Assembly (NCBI RefSeq): GCF_058153355.1
Contig: NZ_CM177019.1
Length of the DNA: 64,000 bases
Strand: one strand, 5' to 3'
Of the stretch, positions 20,210-32,830 are shown one piece after another. The notes below the pieces were generated by a model. That model did no database searches. It was not told the origin of the DNA and saw nothing but the letters and a program-made list of their open reading frames with translations. A program made the position numbers and the translations under genes. The stretch's first letter is position 1. Each line of letters begins with the position of its first letter.

Positions 20210-22245
<2,036 letters not shown>

Positions 22246-22304
22246 GGCGTTGCCTCATAATCATGTAATGGGATAACAGTTTACGAACCCGTTATGGCTT
22301 TATA

Positions 22305-22320
22305 TGTGATCTGAATCTCA
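22305..22320. promoter_or_regulatory. CRP-like site in the cdd promoter region
   Basis: tgtgatctgaatctca (TGTGA-N6-TCTCA) upstream of cdd, a known CRP/CytR-controlled gene. Confidence 0.4.
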
Positions 22321-22374
22321 TTAATTGTGCAACGAATGAAACTTACATCAAAAATGCGCGACGCATCGCAAATT

Positions 22375-23501
<1,127 letters not shown>

Positions 23502-23604
23502 TTAATTCGTAAAACGTGCTACCGATCACATTAAGAATTCTCAGCATAGTTGAATTACAGGGAAGTAACATCGGGCGAGTGCCCAGTTCAGCACACTAAT
23601 TCTG

Positions 23605-24504
23605 CTATAAAAAGTGCAGAAACTGACTTAAAGCATAAGAAGGCGTTTCGTTATTACGCCAAAACACACCGACGCTGCCTTTCTGTTCAATCTTTGGCAG
23701 GTTGAGGATCACCAGTTGCCCCTGGCTGGCATAACGTTGCGCCAGGCGTAATGACAAAATAGAGATCATATTGCTGCTTTGTAACAGGTTGGTACTGACG
23801 TTCATCGACGCCGACTCAATCGTGTTTTCTGGCAGCATCACGCCGTGGTCTACCAGCGCATTATCAATGCTGATGCGGATGGGGGTACCTGTCGGCCAGA
23901 CTATCCACCGCCAGTTAGCAAGATCATTCCAGCTGAGGGTGGCGTATTTCGCCAGTGGATGCTCAGGACGGGCGACAAAGCATACCGGCTCGGTGTAGAG
24001 CACGCGATAATTCAGCGGCAGCTGCAACGCGCGACCGCCAATTCGCCCAACCACCACATCGATAGAACCTGCCAACAGATCTTGCAGCAATGGGGTCATC
24101 ACCTTCTCTTCGATATTCAGGTGTAGAGTTGGCATCTCCTTGAGCAAATGCAAAATCGCCTGGGATACGCAGTCAGTGGCGACGGGAGAACAGCCAATTT
24201 TCAGACTGCCGACCAGTCCACCTTGTTTAAAACGGGCCAGTTCATGTTGCGAGCGCTCCATGTCATTGATTAACCGCTGGGCATGTTGCAATAACAATCT
24301 ACCGCCTTCGGTAGGGCGTAACCCTTTGCTGTGCCGCTCAAAGAGTGTGAGGCCGATCTCATCTTCGAGTTGTGACAACCATTTCGACAGCGCAGGCTGG
24401 GTGATATTCATCATCCGCGCGACATGGGTCAGATTGCCCTGTTCACCCAGCGCCACCAGCATTTGCAGGTGATGAAGCTTTAGTTTCTGCGCCCAGTTTG
24501 CCAT
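23605..24504 (-). CDS. mhbR: LysR-family regulator of the 3-hydroxybenzoate/gentisate cluster (MhbR-like)
   Basis: HTH MANWAQKLKLHHLQMLVALGEQGNLTHVARMMNITQPALSKWL; divergent from the catabolic operon; start chosen at the Met preceded by GGAGG. Confidence 0.8.
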   Translation of the reverse strand: MANWAQKLKLHHLQMLVALGEQGNLTHVARMMNITQPALSKWLSQLEDEIGLTLFERHSKGLRPTEGGRLLLQHAQRLINDMERSQHELARFKQGGLVGSLKIGCSPVATDCVSQAILHLLKEMPTLHLNIEEKVMTPLLQDLLAGSIDVVVGRIGGRALQLPLNYRVLYTEPVCFVARPEHPLAKYATLSWNDLANWRWIVWPTGTPIRISIDNALVDHGVMLPENTIESASMNVSTNLLQSSNMISILSLRLAQRYASQGQLVILNLPKIEQKGSVGVFWRNNETPSYALSQFLHFL

Positions 24505-24509
24505 TTGCC

Positions 24510-24525
24510 ATAACCTCCAGGTTAT
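24510..24525. promoter_or_regulatory. Palindromic LysR-type box (ATAACC-N4-GGTTAT) at the mhbR/mhbT divergent promoter
   Basis: ataacctccaggttat, a perfect inverted repeat immediately upstream of the mhbR start. Confidence 0.4.
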
Positions 24526-24630
24526 CTCTCTGCCCGAAATGCCATTGTACATTTCATCTCTTTAATCACAATATCGCAACATACATAAAACAAAAGAAAC
24601 ATCTACCTTACCTGCACTGAGGCATTTACT

Positions 24631-25989
24631 ATGACTCAACGACGTGATTTACAAGCACTGATCGATGCTGCTCCGGTCGGCAAGATGCAGTGGCGCGTTA
24701 TCATCTGCTGTTTTCTGGTGGTAATGCTCGATGGTTTTGACACCGCGGCTATCGGATTTATCGCCCCTGATATTCGCACTCACTGGCAACTCACCGCAGG
24801 CGATCTCGCCCCGCTTTTTGGCGCGGGTCTGCTGGGATTAACCGCAGGCGCACTGCTTTGTGGCCCGTTGTCTGACCGCTTTGGCCGCAAGCGGGTGATT
24901 GAGCTGTGCGTCTTTTTATTTGGCGCGTTAAGTCTCGCCTCTGCGTTTTCACCAGATCTGCAAACGCTGGTATTACTGCGTTTTCTCACAGGGCTTGGGC
25001 TTGGCGGGGCGATGCCGAACACCATCACCATGACCTCGGAGTATCTGCCTGCCCGCCGCCGAGGCGCGCTGGTGACGCTGATGTTTTGCGGCTTTACGCT
25101 GGGTTCGGCGTTTGGCGGGATTGTCAGCGCACAGCTGGTGCCGGTGATTGGCTGGCACGGGATCCTGGTGTTGGGTGGCGTATTACCGCTGATGCTGTTT
25201 GTCGCACTGCTTGTGATTCTTCCGGAATCGCCACGCTGGCAGGTGCGCCGCCAGTTACCACAGGCGGTGATTGCAAAAACTGTCAGCGCCATTACCCGCG
25301 AGCGTTATGTCGATACCCACTTTTATCTCAATGAATCAGCCTCCGTTACAAAAGGCAGCATTCGTCAACTGTTTATGGGACGTCAGTTACCCATTACGTT
25401 GATGTTGTGGGTAGTGTTCTTTATGAGCCTGCTGATTATTTACCTGCTCTCAAGCTGGATGCCAACGCTGTTGAACCATCGCGGCATAGACCTGCAACAC
25501 GCGTCCAGGGTCACCGCCGCGTTCCAGATTGGCGGTACGTTGGGCGCGCTGGCGCTGGGCGTGCTGATGGATAAGTTCAATCCTTTCCGCGTGCTGGCGC
25601 TGAGCTATGCCGTAGGCGCTGTATGCATCGTGATGATTGGCTTAAGCCAGGATGGATTATGGCTGATGGCGCTGGCGATTTTCGGCACCGGCATTGGCAT
25701 TAGCGGATCTCAGGTGGGGTTGAACGCGTTGACCGCAACGCTCTACCCAACGCAAAGCCGCGCCACGGGCGTGAGCTGGTCAAACGCCGTAGGCCGCTGC
25801 GGCGCGATTGTCGGCTCGCTTTCTGGCGGCCTGATGATGGCGATGAATTTCTCTTTCGACACCCTGTTTTTCATTATCGCTGTGCCCGCGGCGATCAGTG
25901 CGGTGATGTTAAGCCTGCTGATCGCCGTGGTTCGCCAGTCGACCTCTGTCCCTGACTCACTGCCTCGCGCAGGCGTTGTGAACGAATAA
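24631..25989 (+). CDS. mhbT: MFS aromatic acid (3-hydroxybenzoate/gentisate) transporter, MhbT-like
   Basis: 452-aa 12-TM MFS ORF with motif [12 protein letters not shown]; first gene of the catabolic operon. Confidence 0.8.
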
Positions 25990-26000
25990 GGAGCATCCTA

Positions 26001-27029
26001 ATGACTGATAACAATCAAAAAAGCCGCGAGCAATTTTATCAGCATATTTCCGGGCAAAACCTGACCCCGCTGTGGGAGTCACTGCACCACCTGGTGCCGA
26101 AAACGCCCAACGCCAACTGTGCGCCAGCGTACTGGAATTATCAGGAGATCCGCCCGCTGCTGCTGGAGAGCGGCAGCCTGATTGGTGCGAAAGAGGCCGT
26201 GCGCCGCGTGCTGGTGCTGGAAAACCCGGCGCTGCGCGGGCAGTCTTCCATTACCGCGACTTTATATGCCGGTTTGCAACTGATCATGCCGGGCGAAGTG
26301 GCACCGAGTCATCGTCATAATCAGTCGGCGCTGCGTTTTATTGTTGAAGGCAAAGGGGCATTTACCGCCGTTGATGGCGAACGCACGCCAATGAATGAGG
26401 GCGATTTTATCCTGACCCCACAATGGCGCTGGCACGATCATGGTAACCCTGGCGACGAACCGGTTATCTGGCTCGATGGGCTGGATCTGCCATTAGTGAA
26501 CACTCTGGGCTGCGGTTTTGCCGAAGATTACCCGGAAGAGCAACAACCGGTAACGCGTAAAGAGGGCGATTATCTGCCGCGTTACGCTGCCAATATGTTG
26601 CCGCTGCGCCATCAGACGGGGAACTCCTCACCGATCTTTAACTATCGTTATGACCGTAGCCGCGAAGTGCTGCACGATTTAACCCGCCTGGGCGATGCCG
26701 ACGAGTGGGATGGCTACAAAATGCGCTATGTCAACCCGGTCACCGGCGGCTATCCGATGCCGTCGATGGGCGCCTTCCTGCAACTGCTACCGAAAGGGTT
26801 CGCTTCCCGCGTGGCGCGTACCACTGACAGCACTATCTACCATGTAGTGGAAGGTAGCGGACAAGTCACCATCGGCAATGAAATCTTCACCTTTAGTGCA
26901 AAAGATATCTTTGTGGTGCCGACCTGGCACGGCGTGTCATTCCAGACTACGCAAGATACCGTTTTATTCAGTTTTTCGGACAGACCGGTACAAGAAGCCC
27001 TGGGGCTGTTCCGCGAAGCGCGTTATTAA
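26001..27029 (+). CDS. mhbD: Gentisate 1,2-dioxygenase (bicupin)
   Basis: 342-aa ORF with cupin His motif ([17 protein letters not shown]...) and two cupin halves. Confidence 0.9.
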
Positions 27030-27044
27030 TTTGGGAGAGAGAAA

Positions 27045-27746
27045 ATGACTCAATATGTATTCGAACCACAAGCGCCCGTTACCGTACCGGTTGTTGGCAG
27101 TGATGAACAATTCCCCGTGCGCCGCGTTTACTGCGTCGGGCGTAACTATGCCGCCCACGCCCGCGAAATGGGCTTTGATCCGGATCGTGAACCCCCCTTC
27201 TTCTTCTGCAAACCAGCAGATGCCGTTGTTCCGGTCGCCGCTGGCGAAACGCTGGCGCTGCCGTATCCGGCGCAGACCGATAACTATCATTACGAAATTG
27301 AACTGGTGGTGGCGATTGGTAAAAAGGGCAGCGATATCCCACTGGAAAAGGCCCATGAATATGTCTGGGGTTATGCCACAGGCCTTGATATGACGCGCCG
27401 GGACCGTCAAATGGAAATGCGTCAGATGGGCCGCCCGTGGGAAATCGGCAAAGCATTTGATCTCTCGGCCCCCATCGCACCGCTGCACAAAGCCAGCGAA
27501 ACCGGCGGTATTGATAACGCACCAATCTGGTTACAGGTAAACGGTGAAGATCACCAGCGCAGCGATATTCGCCATCTCATCTGGTCGGTGAATGAAACCA
27601 TCAGCTACCTGTCAGGCTTCTTTGAGCTGCAACCGGGCGATCTGATCTTCACTGGTACGCCAGAAGGGGTGGGCCCGGTAGTGAAAGGTGATGTGATCAC
27701 GGGCAACGTCGAGGGCTTAACCCCTATCGCGGTGAAGATTGTCTGA
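27045..27746 (+). CDS. mhbH: Fumarylpyruvate hydrolase (FAH family)
   Basis: 233-aa ORF with fumarylacetoacetate-hydrolase-family fold signature (…[15 protein letters not shown]…). Confidence 0.85.
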
Positions 27747-27751
27747 GGTGC

Positions 27752-28399
27752 ATGATGAAGCTGTACAGTTTTTTTAATAGTTCAGCATCGTACCGGGTAC
27801 GCATTGCGCTGGCGCTGAAAGGCATTAATTACCAGACCGAAGGGGTGAATATCCGTATTGGTCAGCAAAATGAACTGGCCTATCGGCGGATGAATCCTGT
27901 CGGGCTGGTGCCGACGCTGCTGACTGACGAGGGCGAGTCACTCGGTCAGTCGCTGGCGATTATTGACTGGCTGGATCGTCACTACCCGCAAGTTCCGCTG
28001 GTGCCGCAGGAAGAACCGGCCCGCAATAAGGTGCTGGAAATTGTCTATGCCATCGCCTGTGATATTCATCCATTGAATAACCTGCGCGTGCTGCGCTACC
28101 TGACCGAAGAGCTGAACGTCAGTGAAGAAGAGAAAAAACGCTGGTATGCGCACTGGATCCAGCAAGGTTTAAGCGCGGTGGAACAGCTACTGCGCCAGAG
28201 CCAGTCGGGGCAATTTTGTGTGGGTGAGACGCCGACGCTGGCAGACTGCTGCCTTGTTCCGCAGTGGGCGAACGCGCTACGTATGAACTGCGATCTGAGT
28301 GGATATCCGCGCTGCAAAGCGGTGTACGACGCCTGCACACAACTGCCAGCGTTCATTGCCGCAGCGCCAGAAAATCAACAAGATAAAATTTCAGCCTGA
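27752..28399 (+). CDS. mhbI: Maleylpyruvate isomerase (zeta-class glutathione S-transferase)
   Basis: 215-aa ORF with GST N-terminal thioredoxin-like start MKLYSFFNSSASYRVRIALALKG. Confidence 0.85.
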   Translation: MMKLYSFFNSSASYRVRIALALKGINYQTEGVNIRIGQQNELAYRRMNPVGLVPTLLTDEGESLGQSLAIIDWLDRHYPQVPLVPQEEPARNKVLEIVYAIACDIHPLNNLRVLRYLTEELNVSEEEKKRWYAHWIQQGLSAVEQLLRQSQSGQFCVGETPTLADCCLVPQWANALRMNCDLSGYPRCKAVYDACTQLPAFIAAAPENQQDKISA

Positions 28400-28413
28400 C
28401 CAGGAGAACCATA

Positions 28414-29607
28414 ATGACTAAAGTGACACGCGCAGTAATTGTGGGAGGCGGGATCGGCGGTGCGGCAACTGCGCTGTCACTGGCCCGCCAGGGGATCAAA
28501 GTGGTGCTGCTGGAAAAGGCGCATGAGATCGGTGAGATTGGCGCAGGTATCCAGTTGGGGCCAAATGCGTTTTCGGCGTTGGATAGTCTTGGTGTTGGCG
28601 AAATCGCCCGCCAACGTGCGGTATTCACCGATCACATCACCATGATGGACGCGGTGAACGCCGAAGAAGTGGTGCGTATTGAAACCGGGCAGGCCTTTCG
28701 TGACCATTTCGGCGGCCCTTACGCGGTGATCCTCCGGGTTGATATTCATGCCTCGGTGTGGGAAGCGGTACTGACGCATCCGGACGTGGAGTATCACACC
28801 TCTACGAATGTCGTGGATATTCGTGAGACGGAAGACGATGTCACCGTTTTCGACGATCGAGGTAATAGCTGGAGCGGCGATATTTTGATTGGCTGTGATG
28901 GCGTGAAGTCAGTGGTGCGCCAGAGCTTATTAGGCGATGCGCCGCGCGTCACCGGTCATGTGGTCTACCGTGCGGTTATCGATTGTGCGGATATGCCGGA
29001 AGATTTACGTATTAATGCGCCGGTATTGTGGGCGGGTCCGCACTGTCACCTGGTACATTATCCTTTGCGCGGCGGCAAGCAGTATAACCTGGTGGTGACA
29101 TTCCACAGCCGCCACCAGGAAGAGTGGGGCGTGAAGGATGGCAGTAAAGAGGAAGTGCTTTCCTATTTTGAAGGCATTCACCCGCGTCCTCGCCAGATGC
29201 TGGATAAACCGACGTCATGGCGACGCTGGTCAACGGCCGATCGTGAACCGGTAGGGAAATGGGGGACTAACCGCATTACGCTGGTGGGCGATGCGGCCCA
29301 TCCGGTGACGCAGTATATGGCACAAGGTGCCTGTATGGCGCTGGAAGATGCAGTAACGCTGGGTAAGGCGCTGGCGCAGTGTGAGGGTGATGCGGCGCAA
29401 GCTTTTGCGCTGTATGAGTCGGTACGTATTCCGCGTACCGCGCGCATCGTCTGGTCGACCCGTGAAATGGGGCGGGTTTATCACGCCGCAGGGGTAGAAC
29501 GTCAGGTACGTAACCTGCTGTGGAAAGGGAAATCGCAGGCAGAGTTTTATCGCGGCATGGAGTGGCTGTACGGCTGGAAAGAAGATAACTGTCTGCAACC
29601 ACGCTGA
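28414..29607 (+). CDS. mhbM: 3-hydroxybenzoate 6-hydroxylase (FAD-dependent monooxygenase)
   Basis: 397-aa ORF with FAD-binding GxGxxG (VIVGGGIGGAATAL) and the DG and GD motifs of flavin hydroxylases. Confidence 0.85.
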   Translation: MTKVTRAVIVGGGIGGAATALSLARQGIKVVLLEKAHEIGEIGAGIQLGPNAFSALDSLGVGEIARQRAVFTDHITMMDAVNAEEVVRIETGQAFRDHFGGPYAVILRVDIHASVWEAVLTHPDVEYHTSTNVVDIRETEDDVTVFDDRGNSWSGDILIGCDGVKSVVRQSLLGDAPRVTGHVVYRAVIDCADMPEDLRINAPVLWAGPHCHLVHYPLRGGKQYNLVVTFHSRHQEEWGVKDGSKEEVLSYFEGIHPRPRQMLDKPTSWRRWSTADREPVGKWGTNRITLVGDAAHPVTQYMAQGACMALEDAVTLGKALAQCEGDAAQAFALYESVRIPRTARIVWSTREMGRVYHAAGVERQVRNLLWKGKSQAEFYRGMEWLYGWKEDNCLQPR

Positions 29608-29638
29608 GTACTTCTTACCCAATCAGGTGCACGGACGG

Positions 29639-29676
29639 TCCCCTCGCCCCTTTGGGGAGAGGGTTAGGGTGAGGGG
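29639..29676. repeat. G/C-tract structured repeat at the junction between the mhb cluster and dusC
   Basis: tcccctcgcccctttggggagagggttagggtgagggg, with nested inverted repeats cccc-ttt-gggg and ccctc...gaggg. Confidence 0.4.
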
Positions 29677-29726
29677 AAAAATCTTGCCCGAATTAATCAG
29701 TAAGTCAGTTTGTCTGCAAACACCAG

Positions 29727-29755
29727 AGGCGCTAACATAGCGCCTCATTTTTTTG
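29727..29755 (+). terminator. Rho-independent terminator after the mhb operon
   Basis: aggcgctaacatagcgcct hairpin followed by cattttttt; lies inside the long ORF-track N-terminal extension of dusC, which argues for the downstream dusC start. Confidence 0.5.
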
Positions 29756-29766
29756 CGGGTGATGAT

Positions 29767-30714
29767 ATGCGTGTGTTACTGGCGCCGATGGAGGGTGTAC
29801 TCGACTCTCTGGTGCGTGAATTGCTGACCGAAGTTAACGACTACGATCTGTGCATCACCGAGTTTGTCCGCGTGGTGGATCAACTGCTGCCGGTAAAAGT
29901 TTTTCATCGCATTTGCCCGGAGCTACAAAACGCCAGCCGAACGCCATCCGGTACGCTGGTGCGCGTGCAATTGCTGGGTCAGTTCCCACAATGGCTGGCA
30001 GAGAACGCCGCCCGTGCGGTGGAGTTAGGTTCCTGGGGTGTGGATCTTAATTGCGGCTGTCCGTCGAAAACGGTTAACGGTAGCGGCGGCGGGGCGACAC
30101 TACTCAAAGATCCTGAACTCATCTACCAGGGTGCAAAAGCGATGCGTGAAGCTGTACCGGCGCATTTGCCCGTCAGTGTGAAAGTGCGTCTGGGCTGGGA
30201 CAGCGGTGAGAAGAAATTTGAAATCGCCGATGCGGTTCAACAGGCTGGCGCTACGGAGTTGGTGGTGCATGGGCGGACAAAAGAGCAGGGGTACCGCGCG
30301 GAGCATATTGACTGGCAGGCGATTGGCGAGATTCGCCAACGGCTGAATATTCCAGTGATTGCCAACGGTGAAATCTGGGACTGGCAGAGCGCGCAACAGT
30401 GTATGGCGATCAGCGGCTGTGACGCGGTGATGATTGGTCGCGGAGCGCTCAATATTCCCAATCTGAGCCGAGTGGTAAAATACAACGAACCGCGAATGCC
30501 GTGGCCGGAGGTGGTTGCTTTGCTACAAAAATATACCCGTCTGGAAAAGCAGGGCGATACCGGGTTATATCACGTTGCGCGGATTAAACAGTGGTTGAGT
30601 TATTTGCGTAAAGAATACGATGAAGCAACAGAATTATTTCAGCATGTTCGGGTGTTGAATAATTCCCCTGATATTGCAAGGGCTATTCAGGCAATTGATA
30701 TCGAGAAACTCTAA
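29767..30714 (+). CDS. dusC: tRNA-dihydrouridine(16) synthase DusC
   Basis: 315-aa product starting [36 protein letters not shown]; TIM-barrel Dus family. Confidence 0.9.
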
Positions 30715-31086
30715 GAAACCATAGTGATGTTTTTTGACAATGTGTTAGCTCTTTATCAATAGGCCGCACGGTTGTTTGGTGGCGTCAAAATCGCCGAGGC
30801 GTTCCCTGAAGGCCGGGGCAGCCCACATGGATGTGGGCTGAGGGCGCGTTTTACAGGGATGTTACCTCGCGCCCGACCCGGTAGCCGTAAGGGATAAGCC
30901 GAGGGCACCGCGCAGCGGCGATTTTGTTCGCCAGAGCCCGGGGGTGCAGGGGGCGGCGGCGACTGGTCGCCCCCTGCGCGCTCCTTGCGCTAGTGATTAT
31001 ATGAAGCAATGCACATGACAGGAGCGCAACAGGATGAGAGACTGAAATATTCTCGTTATTTTCGGATCTGATGACGTTAATTAATT

Positions 31087-31170
31087 TTAAAATATCATCT
31101 TAAATACGCCAGTCACCACCAGTAGTCCAATCAGGAAAATAATCAATACAGCCCAGAGTATAATTTTCAT
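31087..31170 (-). CDS. yohP: Small membrane protein YohP (27 aa)
   Basis: Reverse-strand ORF MKIILWAVLIIFLIGLLVVTGVFKMIF; below the ORF-track size cut-off and read manually. Confidence 0.75.
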   Translation of the reverse strand: MKIILWAVLIIFLIGLLVVTGVFKMIF

Positions 31171-31393
31171 TGGCGTTCCTTTATTTGTGAGTGTCGAATA
31201 AGTATAGGAAAAAACGAAGCCCTTTGCCGTTACTCATAAGTGATTAAGATAAATCGGAGAATATCATTCACTTACTGTATATTTTTCTGAATATGTCGTT
31301 TTATTGCCACTGATGTATTGCCACGCGAAACTAAAAAATATATTGCATCACACGGTAATCTCCGCGCACCTTTTCTTACCTGACTATTCCTCC

Positions 31394-32830
31394 ATGAATC
31401 GTGATTCCTTTTACCCAGCCATCGCCTGTTTTCCTCTGTTACTGATGCTGGCCGGGTGTGCGCCTATGCATGAAACCCGCCAGGCGTTAAGCCAGCAAAC
31501 ACCCGCTGCGCAAGTTGACACCGCATTACCTACGGCGCTGAAAAATGGTTGGCCAGACAGCCAATGGTGGCTGGAGTATCACGATAATCAACTCACTTCA
31601 TTAATTAACTATGCACTGCAGAACGCACCGGATATGCAGGTGGCTGAACAGCGCATTCAGCTGGCTGAAGCCCAGGCGAAGGCAGTTGCCACTCAGGATG
31701 GCCCTCAGATCGATTTTTCTGCGGATATGGAGCGGCAAAAAATGTCGGCAGAAGGGCTAATGGGGCCGTTTGCTCTGAACGATCCTGCCGCAGGTACGAC
31801 CGGTCCGTGGTACACCAATGGTACTTTTGGCTTAACGGCGGGCTGGCATCTTGATATTTGGGGAAAAAATCGGGCGGAGGTTACTGCTCGCCTCGGTACG
31901 GTTAAAGCACGGGCGGCGGAACGCGAGCAAACCCGCCAATTGCTGGCTGGCAGCGTAGCCCGCCTGTACTGGGAGTGGCAAACCCAGGCAGCGTTAAACA
32001 CTGTTTTGCAGCAAATCGTAAAAGAGCAGAACACCATTATCGCGACCGATCGCCAGCTATATCAGAACGGGATTACTTCTTCAGTTGAAGGTGTGGAAAC
32101 CGATATTAATGCTAGCAAGACCCGGCAGCAGCTCAACGATGCCGTGGGAAAAATGAAAATTATTGAGGCACGGTTAAGCGCACTTACAAATCACCAGATA
32201 AAGTCATTGAAGCTTAAACCGGTTGAGTTGCCGAAAGTGGCAAGTCAGCTTCCTGATGAACTGGGGTATTCATTGCTGGCACGGCGGGCAGATTTGCAGG
32301 CAGCGCATTGGTACGTTGAGTCATCGTTAAGCACCATTGATGCGGCAAAAGCGGCATTTTATCCTGACATCAACCTGATGGCCTTCCTGCAACAGGATGC
32401 GTTGCACTTAAGCGATTTGTTCCGTCATTCCGCGCAGCAAATGGGCGTTACGGCAGGCCTGACGCTACCCATTTTCGATAGTGGTCGTCTTAACGCCAAC
32501 CTCGATATTGCAAAAGCCGAAAGCAACTTGTCTATCGCCAGCTACAACAAAGCGGTGGTTGAAGCGGTGAATGACGTGGCGCGGGCAGCCAGTCAGGTTC
32601 AGACGCTGGCGGAGAAAAACCAGCATCAGGCGCAAATTGAGCGCGATGCCTTGCGTGTGGTAGGTCTTGCGCAGGCCCGCTTTAACGCGGGTATCATTGC
32701 TGGTTCCCGCGTCAGCGAAGCCAGAATCCCGGCGCTGCGTGAGCGGGCCAATGGCCTGTTATTGCAAGGGCAGTGGCTGGATGCCTCCATTCAACTCACT
32801 GGTGCGTTGGGCGGGGGTTACAAACGCTGA
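31394..32830 (+). CDS. mdtQ: Outer membrane efflux lipoprotein, OMF/NodT family (MdtQ), apparently intact
   Basis: 478-aa product from MNRDSFYPAIACFPLLLMLAGCAP with lipobox LAGC; TolC-like repeats; uninterrupted frame. Confidence 0.85.
   Translation: MNRDSFYPAIACFPLLLMLAGCAPMHETRQALSQQTPAAQVDTALPTALKNGWPDSQWWLEYHDNQLTSLINYALQNAPDMQVAEQRIQLAEAQAKAVATQDGPQIDFSADMERQKMSAEGLMGPFALNDPAAGTTGPWYTNGTFGLTAGWHLDIWGKNRAEVTARLGTVKARAAEREQTRQLLAGSVARLYWEWQTQAALNTVLQQIVKEQNTIIATDRQLYQNGITSSVEGVETDINASKTRQQLNDAVGKMKIIEARLSALTNHQIKSLKLKPVELPKVASQLPDELGYSLLARRADLQAAHWYVESSLSTIDAAKAAFYPDINLMAFLQQDALHLSDLFRHSAQQMGVTAGLTLPIFDSGRLNANLDIAKAESNLSIASYNKAVVEAVNDVARAASQVQTLAEKNQHQAQIERDALRVVGLAQARFNAGIIAGSRVSEARIPALRERANGLLLQGQWLDASIQLTGALGGGYKR

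Follow-up and report, generated by a model that had tools for sequence, protein, structure and literature searches.

Gene content of the mhb cluster

We analysed a stretch of 64,000 nucleotides from NCBI RefSeq assembly GCF_058153355.1 (contig NZ_CM177019.1), hereafter the window, and within it a block of genes at 23605-29607, between yohJ and dusC, which corresponds to the mhb locus for catabolism of 3-hydroxybenzoate via gentisate. The interval holds six long open reading frames (ORFs), one on the minus strand and then five on the plus strand that lie 5-15 bp from one another. All six are intact, real genes in the order mhbR | mhbT-mhbD-mhbH-mhbI-mhbM. An initial annotation, made from the letters of the sequence, had proposed this content, order and orientation together with the pathway assignment, and these held: the ORFs lie where it placed them, and their products match the corresponding families in NCBIfam and Pfam scans. 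Two gene bounds changed, namely the start of mhbR (24504, not 24552) and that of mhbI (27755, not 27752). Equivalog cut-offs served as the pass threshold in the scans, and three enzymes, MhbD, MhbI and MhbM, passed them.

The divergently transcribed mhbR (23605..24504, minus strand) encodes a LysR-type regulator with the Pfam domains HTH_1 and LysR_substrate. Its ORF reaches up to 24552, with an extra N-terminal part that orthologues do not have; because RefSeq orthologues align from M17 and a GGAGG box stands 10 nt upstream of the ATG at 24504, this ATG is the most likely start, giving a predicted product of 299 aa. On the plus strand, mhbT (24631..25989) encodes a major facilitator superfamily transporter resembling the aromatic-acid:H+ symporter (AAHS) type, with PcaK and AAHS TIGR00895 as its best NCBIfam matches. 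Its translation carries DGFD at residues 34-37, and a DGXD motif in the first transmembrane segment of MhbT/AAHS transporters is defined in PMC5566891. The O157:H7 orthologue carries the RefSeq name MhbT and the syntenic orthologue of the Klebsiella oxytoca complex is 86-87% identical, and we regard the protein as a putative 3-hydroxybenzoate importer.

The best supported enzyme is that of mhbD (gtdA; 26001..27029, plus strand), an Fe(II) bicupin gentisate 1,2-dioxygenase with two Cupin_2 stretches in Pfam, which scored 600.7 bits against TIGR02272 (cut-off 442.1) and 787 bits over its full length (residues 1-342) against PDB 2d40, the E. coli O157:H7 enzyme. By tblastn on the O157:H7 locus the two dioxygenases are ~98% identical. 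According to the account in PMC4585797, which cites Adams et al. 2006, the O157:H7 gentisate 1,2-dioxygenase was shown to be active and its iron ligands are His104, His106 and His145, all three of which are present in the window translation. Next to it, mhbH (27045..27746, plus strand) encodes a putative fumarylpyruvate hydrolase of the FAH family (Pfam FAA_hydrolase, 185 bits). Its nearest structures are PDB 6j5y (381 bits) and 4maq, a 'putative fumarylpyruvate hydrolase' (250 bits); it passes no NCBIfam equivalog cut-off, and fumarylpyruvate is its presumed substrate from context and orthology.

The product of mhbI (maiA; 27755..28399, plus strand) is a glutathione-dependent maleylpyruvate isomerase of the zeta class of glutathione S-transferases (GSTs). 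It scored 309 bits against TIGR01262, a family of maleylacetoacetate/maleylpyruvate-type zeta-GSTs (cut-off 171), and 165 bits against the 'maleylpyruvate isomerase' NagL (PDB 2jl4/2v6k), and it contains the SSxxxRVRIAL motif; a preference for maleylpyruvate over maleylacetoacetate would be read solely from gene context. The last gene, mhbM (28414..29607, plus strand), encodes a flavin adenine dinucleotide (FAD)-dependent 3-hydroxybenzoate 6-monooxygenase with 754 bits against NF006021 (cut-off 459) and 265 bits against PDB 4bjy, of the Rhodococcus jostii 3-hydroxybenzoate 6-hydroxylase family. Its translation shows GGGIGG at residues 11-16, GDAAHP and Arg169, in keeping with the FAD fingerprints GXGXXG and GD(A)AH.

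Strong purifying selection acts on all six genes, as indicated by the low ratio of nonsynonymous to synonymous divergence (omega), which is 0.03-0.07 against O157 and exceeds 0.09 in no comparison. In O157:H7 and further E. coli genomes, RefSeq already annotates the six-gene cluster (mhbT, gtdA, maiA, 3-hydroxybenzoate 6-monooxygenase etc.) at its place between yohJ and dusC. An Rfam scan of 23300-31400 returned just two sub-threshold matches, neither of them within the cluster.

Control region and proposed pathway

Between the divergent mhbR and mhbT lies a control region of 126 bp (24505..24630). When 18 orthologous intergenic regions, drawn from many genera including Klebsiella, were aligned, several blocks in it proved invariant or nearly so. 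These are a dyad, ATAACC-N4-GGTTAT, at 24510-25, just upstream of mhbR; the invariant block CCATTGTAC at 24542-50, which holds a TACAAT -10-like hexamer on the minus strand; and an invariant ACATA at 24579-83. A promoter-like site is found on the minus strand at 24571-24544. The dyad is a candidate MhbR-binding site, and the layout as a whole is consistent with autoregulation and activation of the LysR type.

The function of the pathway is predicted from orthology to characterised proteins, with the dioxygenase as the sole step for which activity was shown in an E. coli orthologue. As proposed, MhbT would bring 3-hydroxybenzoate into the cell, where MhbM, using FAD and NADH, would hydroxylate it at C6 to gentisate. 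MhbD would then open the gentisate ring with the help of Fe2+ to yield maleylpyruvate, MhbI and glutathione would convert this to fumarylpyruvate, and MhbH would split the latter into fumarate and pyruvate. The operon would be activated from the conserved 126-bp region by MhbR.

Several known systems can be set beside this cluster. The closest in kind is that of Klebsiella M5a1 (K. pneumoniae, now oxytoca/michiganensis), whose mhbR-mhbTDHIM genes and pathway are described as experimentally characterised in PMC3572157 and its references, and for MhbT in PMC5566891; the work cited in these two papers includes Jones & Cooper 1990, Robson 1996, Lin 2010 and Xu 2012. Gene for gene it agrees with the window cluster in content, order and orientation, down to the divergent LysR gene, and there is no difference in kind. 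We represented M5a1 by the K. michiganensis and K. oxytoca type-strain loci (L025 and L033); orthologues of the K. oxytoca complex also lie between yohJ and dusC, show 84-92% protein identity and share the conserved control region. The Klebsiella-type organisation that had been claimed for the window was thus confirmed, with identical order and orientation in L025, L033 and 26 other species genomes, and by these comparisons the window cluster is best described as the Escherichia orthologue of the Klebsiella mhb locus. The E. coli O157:H7 cluster, source of PDB 2d40, has the same six genes at the same locus and site with the three iron-ligand histidines conserved, but its alleles form another lineage, with 94.4% identity in cluster DNA and 97-99% in protein.

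More distant are the nag genes of Ralstonia sp. U2 and mhbRTDHI of Burkholderia xenovorans LB400, which share the chemistry (dioxygenase, the glutathione-dependent isomerase NagL and fumarylpyruvate hydrolase) but sit in a chromosomal context unlike that of the window. In LB400, unlike the window, the regulator is of the MarR type and mhbM lies elsewhere in the genome (PMC3572157), and the proteins are ~38-64% identical to those of Klebsiella (PMC3572157, Table 2).

Synteny and co-divergence across the Enterobacteriaceae

The age of the cluster at this site was addressed by a species survey, in which one representative genome per species was queried with the dioxygenase, 10 kb were kept on each side, and the flank and cluster proteins of the window were placed in each locus by tblastn. 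Among the best 80 loci, 28 species genomes from ~10 genera contain all 11 genes in the arrangement sanA-cdd-yohK-yohJ | mhbR | mhbT-D-H-I-M | dusC, usually with mdtQ after dusC. They include strain E69 of another Escherichia lineage (~91.5% DNA identity to the window), many Citrobacter species, the Klebsiella oxytoca complex, Raoultella and Kluyvera, as well as Pseudocitrobacter, Pseudenterobacter, Pluralibacter, Shimwellia and Entomohabitans, while in E. albertii the arrangement matches until the contig ends.

The cluster and its flanks have diverged together. DNA identity to the window is 98.4% in the cluster and 99.1/99.4% in the flanks for L001, 94.4% and 96.0/95.9% for O157:H7, 91.3% and 91.5/91.9% for E69, 89.9% and 88.8% (one flank) for E. 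albertii, 82.0% and 79.2/73.4% for Citrobacter portucalensis, and 78.8% and 76.3/78.2% for K. oxytoca. In all-against-all protein distance matrices, flank and cluster divergence were correlated with a Mantel r of 0.955, a value not reached in any of 2000 permutations, and synonymous divergence (dS) is similar within the cluster and in the flanks. The ORFs of the window include no integrase, transposase or insertion sequence (IS) genes, and a search for repeats ~6.1 kb apart found no direct or terminal inverted repeats flanking the cluster. There is no sharp GC break either, the composition being continuous with dusC. The usual marks of a genomic island (mobility genes, repeats, a compositional break, absence in related genera) are therefore missing from the window cluster.

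A few loci in the survey carry the cluster in other settings. In the Serratia marcescens group (L032, L034, L036, L042) it has 87-93% protein identity to that of Escherichia and no yohJ or dusC flanks; this high identity without the flanks suggests that the Serratia cluster came from Enterobacteriaceae by transfer. Trabulsiella (L007, L019, L045) and Cedecea (L035) also have the cluster in another context. Finally, a metagenome-assembled genome labelled Collinsella sp. (L049, a 9-kb contig) has E. coli-like mhbR, mhbT and mhbM at 97-98% identity, residues 1-309 only of MhbD at 84% identity, and no tblastn match to mhbH or mhbI. An E. coli contig that lost an internal segment and was binned wrongly is the probable explanation.

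The empty site in K-12-type genomes

K-12-type genomes (BL21, DH5a, strain C and others) lack the cluster, and their yohJ-dusC interval measures 238 bp, in agreement with the earlier remark that K-12 has no such genes near dusC. The comparison with K-12 and enterohaemorrhagic E. coli that had been proposed as a check was run, and it found the site empty in the K-12 type and occupied by the cluster in O157:H7. On the yohJ side, 72 bp of the window (23466..23537) match positions 1-72 of the yohJ-dusC interval in BL21 at 100% identity, so that the left edge of the presence/absence difference falls at 23537/23538. On the dusC side, the final ~60 bp before dusC in BL21 correspond to the ancestral mhbM-dusC spacer described below. 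Within it, BL21 keeps TTTAATCCGCTGACC; in E69 and E. albertii the mhbM stop codon precedes this sequence by a few bases. Between these two parts is a filler of ~104 bp (ATCAGCGCTTATTTTTTCGC...GCAATCCCTCTTTGCAG; positions 3139-3242 of L003, the BL21 locus), which is absent from the window. The filler carries a hairpin of its own, AGAGGGATTGC-AGTTTGCA-GCAATCCCTCT followed by TTT.

Because the empty site contains a remnant of the ancestral post-mhbM spacer together with foreign filler, it reads as the derived state, in which a short filler took the place of ~6.1 kb and the right-hand break falls where mhbM ends. The empty allele, counted at >=80% coverage of a 311-bp probe, is present in 4918 of 5426 complete E. 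coli genomes (~91%), and a probe for the left junction of the native site was covered in 504, which together account for 5422 genomes. As one empty allele is common to all 4918 genomes and the two probes account for nearly the whole collection, this looks like a single loss event whose allele is now dominant in E. coli. It should be kept in mind that the collection over-samples O157:H7 and that these percentages describe the database rather than natural frequencies.

One candidate for direct proof of deletion in situ was dropped. Strain NCTC9100 has a 198-bp remnant of mhbM (H90; L004 3001-3199), but this lies elsewhere in the genome, in an island with IS30 and type VI secretion system remnants, and its downstream genes are the same as those of the island copy L086.

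The mhbM-dusC spacer and its hairpin

The spacer between mhbM and dusC varies in length. The window, L001 and O157 have 159 bp, whereas E. albertii has ~60 bp and E69, Citrobacter, Pseudocitrobacter, Pluralibacter and strain LSJC7 have 61-63 bp. We take the ancestral spacer to be 61 bp and the longer form to reflect a ~100-bp secondary insertion found only in the cluster alleles of E. coli. In the window the insertion occupies 29612..29722, and its core at 29640-29676 is a GC-rich imperfect palindromic repeat, CCCCTCGCCCCTTTGGGGAGAGGGTTAGGGTGAGGGG. This repeat occurs once in the window and has a median of ~7 further copies per E. coli genome; it is presumably similar to the boxC repeat family.

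Between the insertion and dusC is a terminator-like hairpin at 29726..29755 (plus strand), GAGGCGCTA-ACA-TAGCGCCTC followed by seven T residues. The stem-loop itself spans 29726-29746 (GAGGCGCTAnnnTAGCGCCTC), and 12 nt separate the end of the element from the dusC ATG at 29767. A 9-bp stem with the T-run appears in both the minimum free energy and the centroid folds. The initial annotation had assigned the cluster its own terminator at 29727-29755, and while the hairpin and T-run are real, the assignment to the cluster does not hold. The hairpin is present in BL21, which has no cluster, and is retained in ~4900 E. coli genomes without mhb. It is nearly invariant, ~12-30 nt upstream of the dusC ATG, in nearly all syntenic genomes (L003, L005-L053), although coding DNA there is only ~78% identical, and where 0.4-2.1 kb have been inserted after mhbM (e.g., in Kluyvera and Pseudenterobacter) it stays by dusC and not by mhbM. 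Since it is kept without the cluster and tracks dusC when DNA is inserted, the hairpin is best understood as a conserved dusC-associated element that was not brought by the cluster. It is nevertheless positioned where it could stop mhb transcription. Its place directly before the ribosome-binding site suggests a possible role in dusC expression, as attenuator, insulator or protein-binding palindrome, and not merely as a terminator. In Kluyvera and relatives (L012, L014, L024, L029, L052) the extra DNA that separates mhbM from dusC amounts to 1.5-2.1 kb.

Distribution and alleles within E. coli

Counted at any position, the cluster is present in 611 complete E. coli genomes, ~107 more than at the native site; native-site carriers make up ~9% of the collection, and the share of carriers is put at ~9-11%. 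The copies at other sites have the same six genes and are 92.9-94.8% identical to the window, but their neighbours are IS elements and virulence genes instead of yohJ and dusC. For example, L086 (9001-15116) is a second-site copy in an IS-rich pathogenicity island adjoining the type III effector genes espL2, nleB and nleE, and L088 (9001-14947) is a copy on a plasmid of enterotoxigenic E. coli (ETEC) with F4 fimbriae and STa, located between IS1 and IS1414. These island and plasmid copies, unlike the one in the window, are acquired mobile cargo.

The flanks of the window (20452-23537 and 29726-32830) are ~96% identical to those of K-12-type, B and O157:H7 strains, which are ~99% alike here, and 99% identical to those of the closest relative, strain 2020CK-00188. 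Given that its flanks have diverged by ~4% from K-12, B and O157, the window appears to represent an E. coli lineage that branched deeply and kept the operon.

Discussion

Taken together, our comparisons make it very probable that the mhb operon has been inherited vertically at the yohJ-dusC site and was lost in K-12-type E. coli, in what seems to be a single event in which ~6.1 kb gave way to a filler of ~104 bp. Vertical inheritance at a fixed site is argued for by the shared synteny, the co-divergence of cluster and flanks, the similar dS, the spacer of near-constant length in several genera, the conserved control region, and the lack of mobility genes and repeats. Comparison across genera dates the operon at this site back to the ancestor shared by Escherichia, Citrobacter, Klebsiella, Raoultella, Kluyvera and Shimwellia, or further, with the lineage of the window among those that would have kept it.

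Several observations weigh against this account or against the function that we ascribe to the operon. No source of the filler was found in the mhb cluster of the genera compared: the middle part of the K-12-type intergenic region, 104-121 bp, gave no match to the cluster by blastn-short, and in local alignments with six cluster sequences it scored 22-25, where shuffled sequence gave a mean of ~22. E. fergusonii, other named Escherichia species and Salmonella fall outside the best 80 loci of the survey, and there may have been more than one independent loss. Between the native-site alleles of O157 and isolate 362 (L002 vs L087), the cluster is 95.5% and the left flank 98.8% identical, which points to old allele lineages or to introgression or recombination at the native site, and not to simple descent within the species. 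As for the proteins, MhbT scored 380.3 bits against AAHS TIGR00895, under the cut-off of 418.55, and MhbR and MhbH are assigned at family level only. MhbR also ends three codons early, with a TAG at 23605-23607 where orthologues have CAG-CAA-AAC-stop, although the loss of this QQN tail is probably benign.

Two other explanations, both of them unlikely, deserve attention. The first accepts that the locus is ancestral to the genus and holds that the copy in the window was reintroduced from another Escherichia lineage by homologous recombination through the yohJ and dusC arms. It draws on the cluster being slightly more diverged from O157 than the flanks are (94.4% vs 96.0%), and on the far greater divergence of mainstream E. 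coli cluster alleles than of their flanks in the comparison just given, as introgression or long-separated lineages would predict. However, no recombination breakpoint was identified, and the flanks of the window are themselves ~4% off K-12, B and O157 and 99% identical to those of L001, whose cluster is 98.4% identical; with both close to L001 and the flanks far from K-12, B and O157, flank and cluster agree on the history of this lineage.

The second, to which we likewise give little credence, is that the operon is silent in Escherichia or serves a substrate other than 3-hydroxybenzoate, such as gentisate or salicylate derivatives of gut origin. The specificity of MhbT is unreadable from sequence, its score being under the subfamily cut-off, and our literature searches found no relevant reports on growth phenotypes of E. 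coli carriers or on the phylogroup distribution of the cluster. On the other side stand the purifying selection on all six genes, the score of MhbM above the 3-hydroxybenzoate 6-monooxygenase equivalog cut-off, and a promoter region that is conserved with Klebsiella, where function is described as demonstrated in references given by PMC3572157.

A horizontally acquired cassette with its own terminator, inserted between yohJ and dusC with the K-12 state as the ancestral one, is highly improbable: the low share of carriers in E. coli, the evident mobility of the IS-flanked copies (the nleB/nleE/espL2 island and the F4/STa ETEC plasmids) and the Serratia copies at 87-93% identity without yohJ or dusC would speak for it, but 28 species genomes share the site and orientation with cluster and flanks co-diverging, the window has neither mobility genes nor target-site repeats and a composition that runs on into dusC, the empty site appears derived from its ancestral remnant and foreign filler, and the terminator exists without the cluster. 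The initial annotation had read the cluster as an accessory trait placed into a core locus. Its variable distribution in E. coli (~9% at the site) bears out the first half of that description, while its origin appears ancestral and not inserted; indeed, cross-genus synteny points to the very outcome that the annotation had named as contrary to acquisition, namely a cluster ancestral at this site and deleted in K-12.

With vertical inheritance and loss as the preferred account, it may be asked why presence and absence coexist in E. coli. One idea is that they represent an old polymorphism kept by selection, and not a neutral relic, since native-site allele lineages differ by 4-5.5% between flanks that are ~99% identical, and since an effector island and ETEC plasmids have captured the cluster independently. 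We regard this as speculative and rather unlikely, but if it were true, pathogenic lineages would have been selected for catabolism through the gentisate pathway in particular niches, e.g., in ruminant guts or guts rich in plant phenolics.

The pathway, the gene content and the locus were already known, and there is nothing new in the gene content, as the low novelty anticipated at the outset from the characterised Klebsiella pathway and now also the RefSeq annotation indicate; nor does the mhb locus open a new mechanistic question. Its presence leads to the prediction that the strain can use 3-hydroxybenzoate and gentisate, which are breakdown products of plant and microbial phenolics, and it makes the operon a minor metabolic marker that separates lineages such as O157:H7 from K-12-like E. 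coli. The more general point is a correction: absence from K-12 is no evidence of acquisition, and what looks like an island in comparison with K-12 would here be the ancestral state, with K-12 as the deletion mutant.

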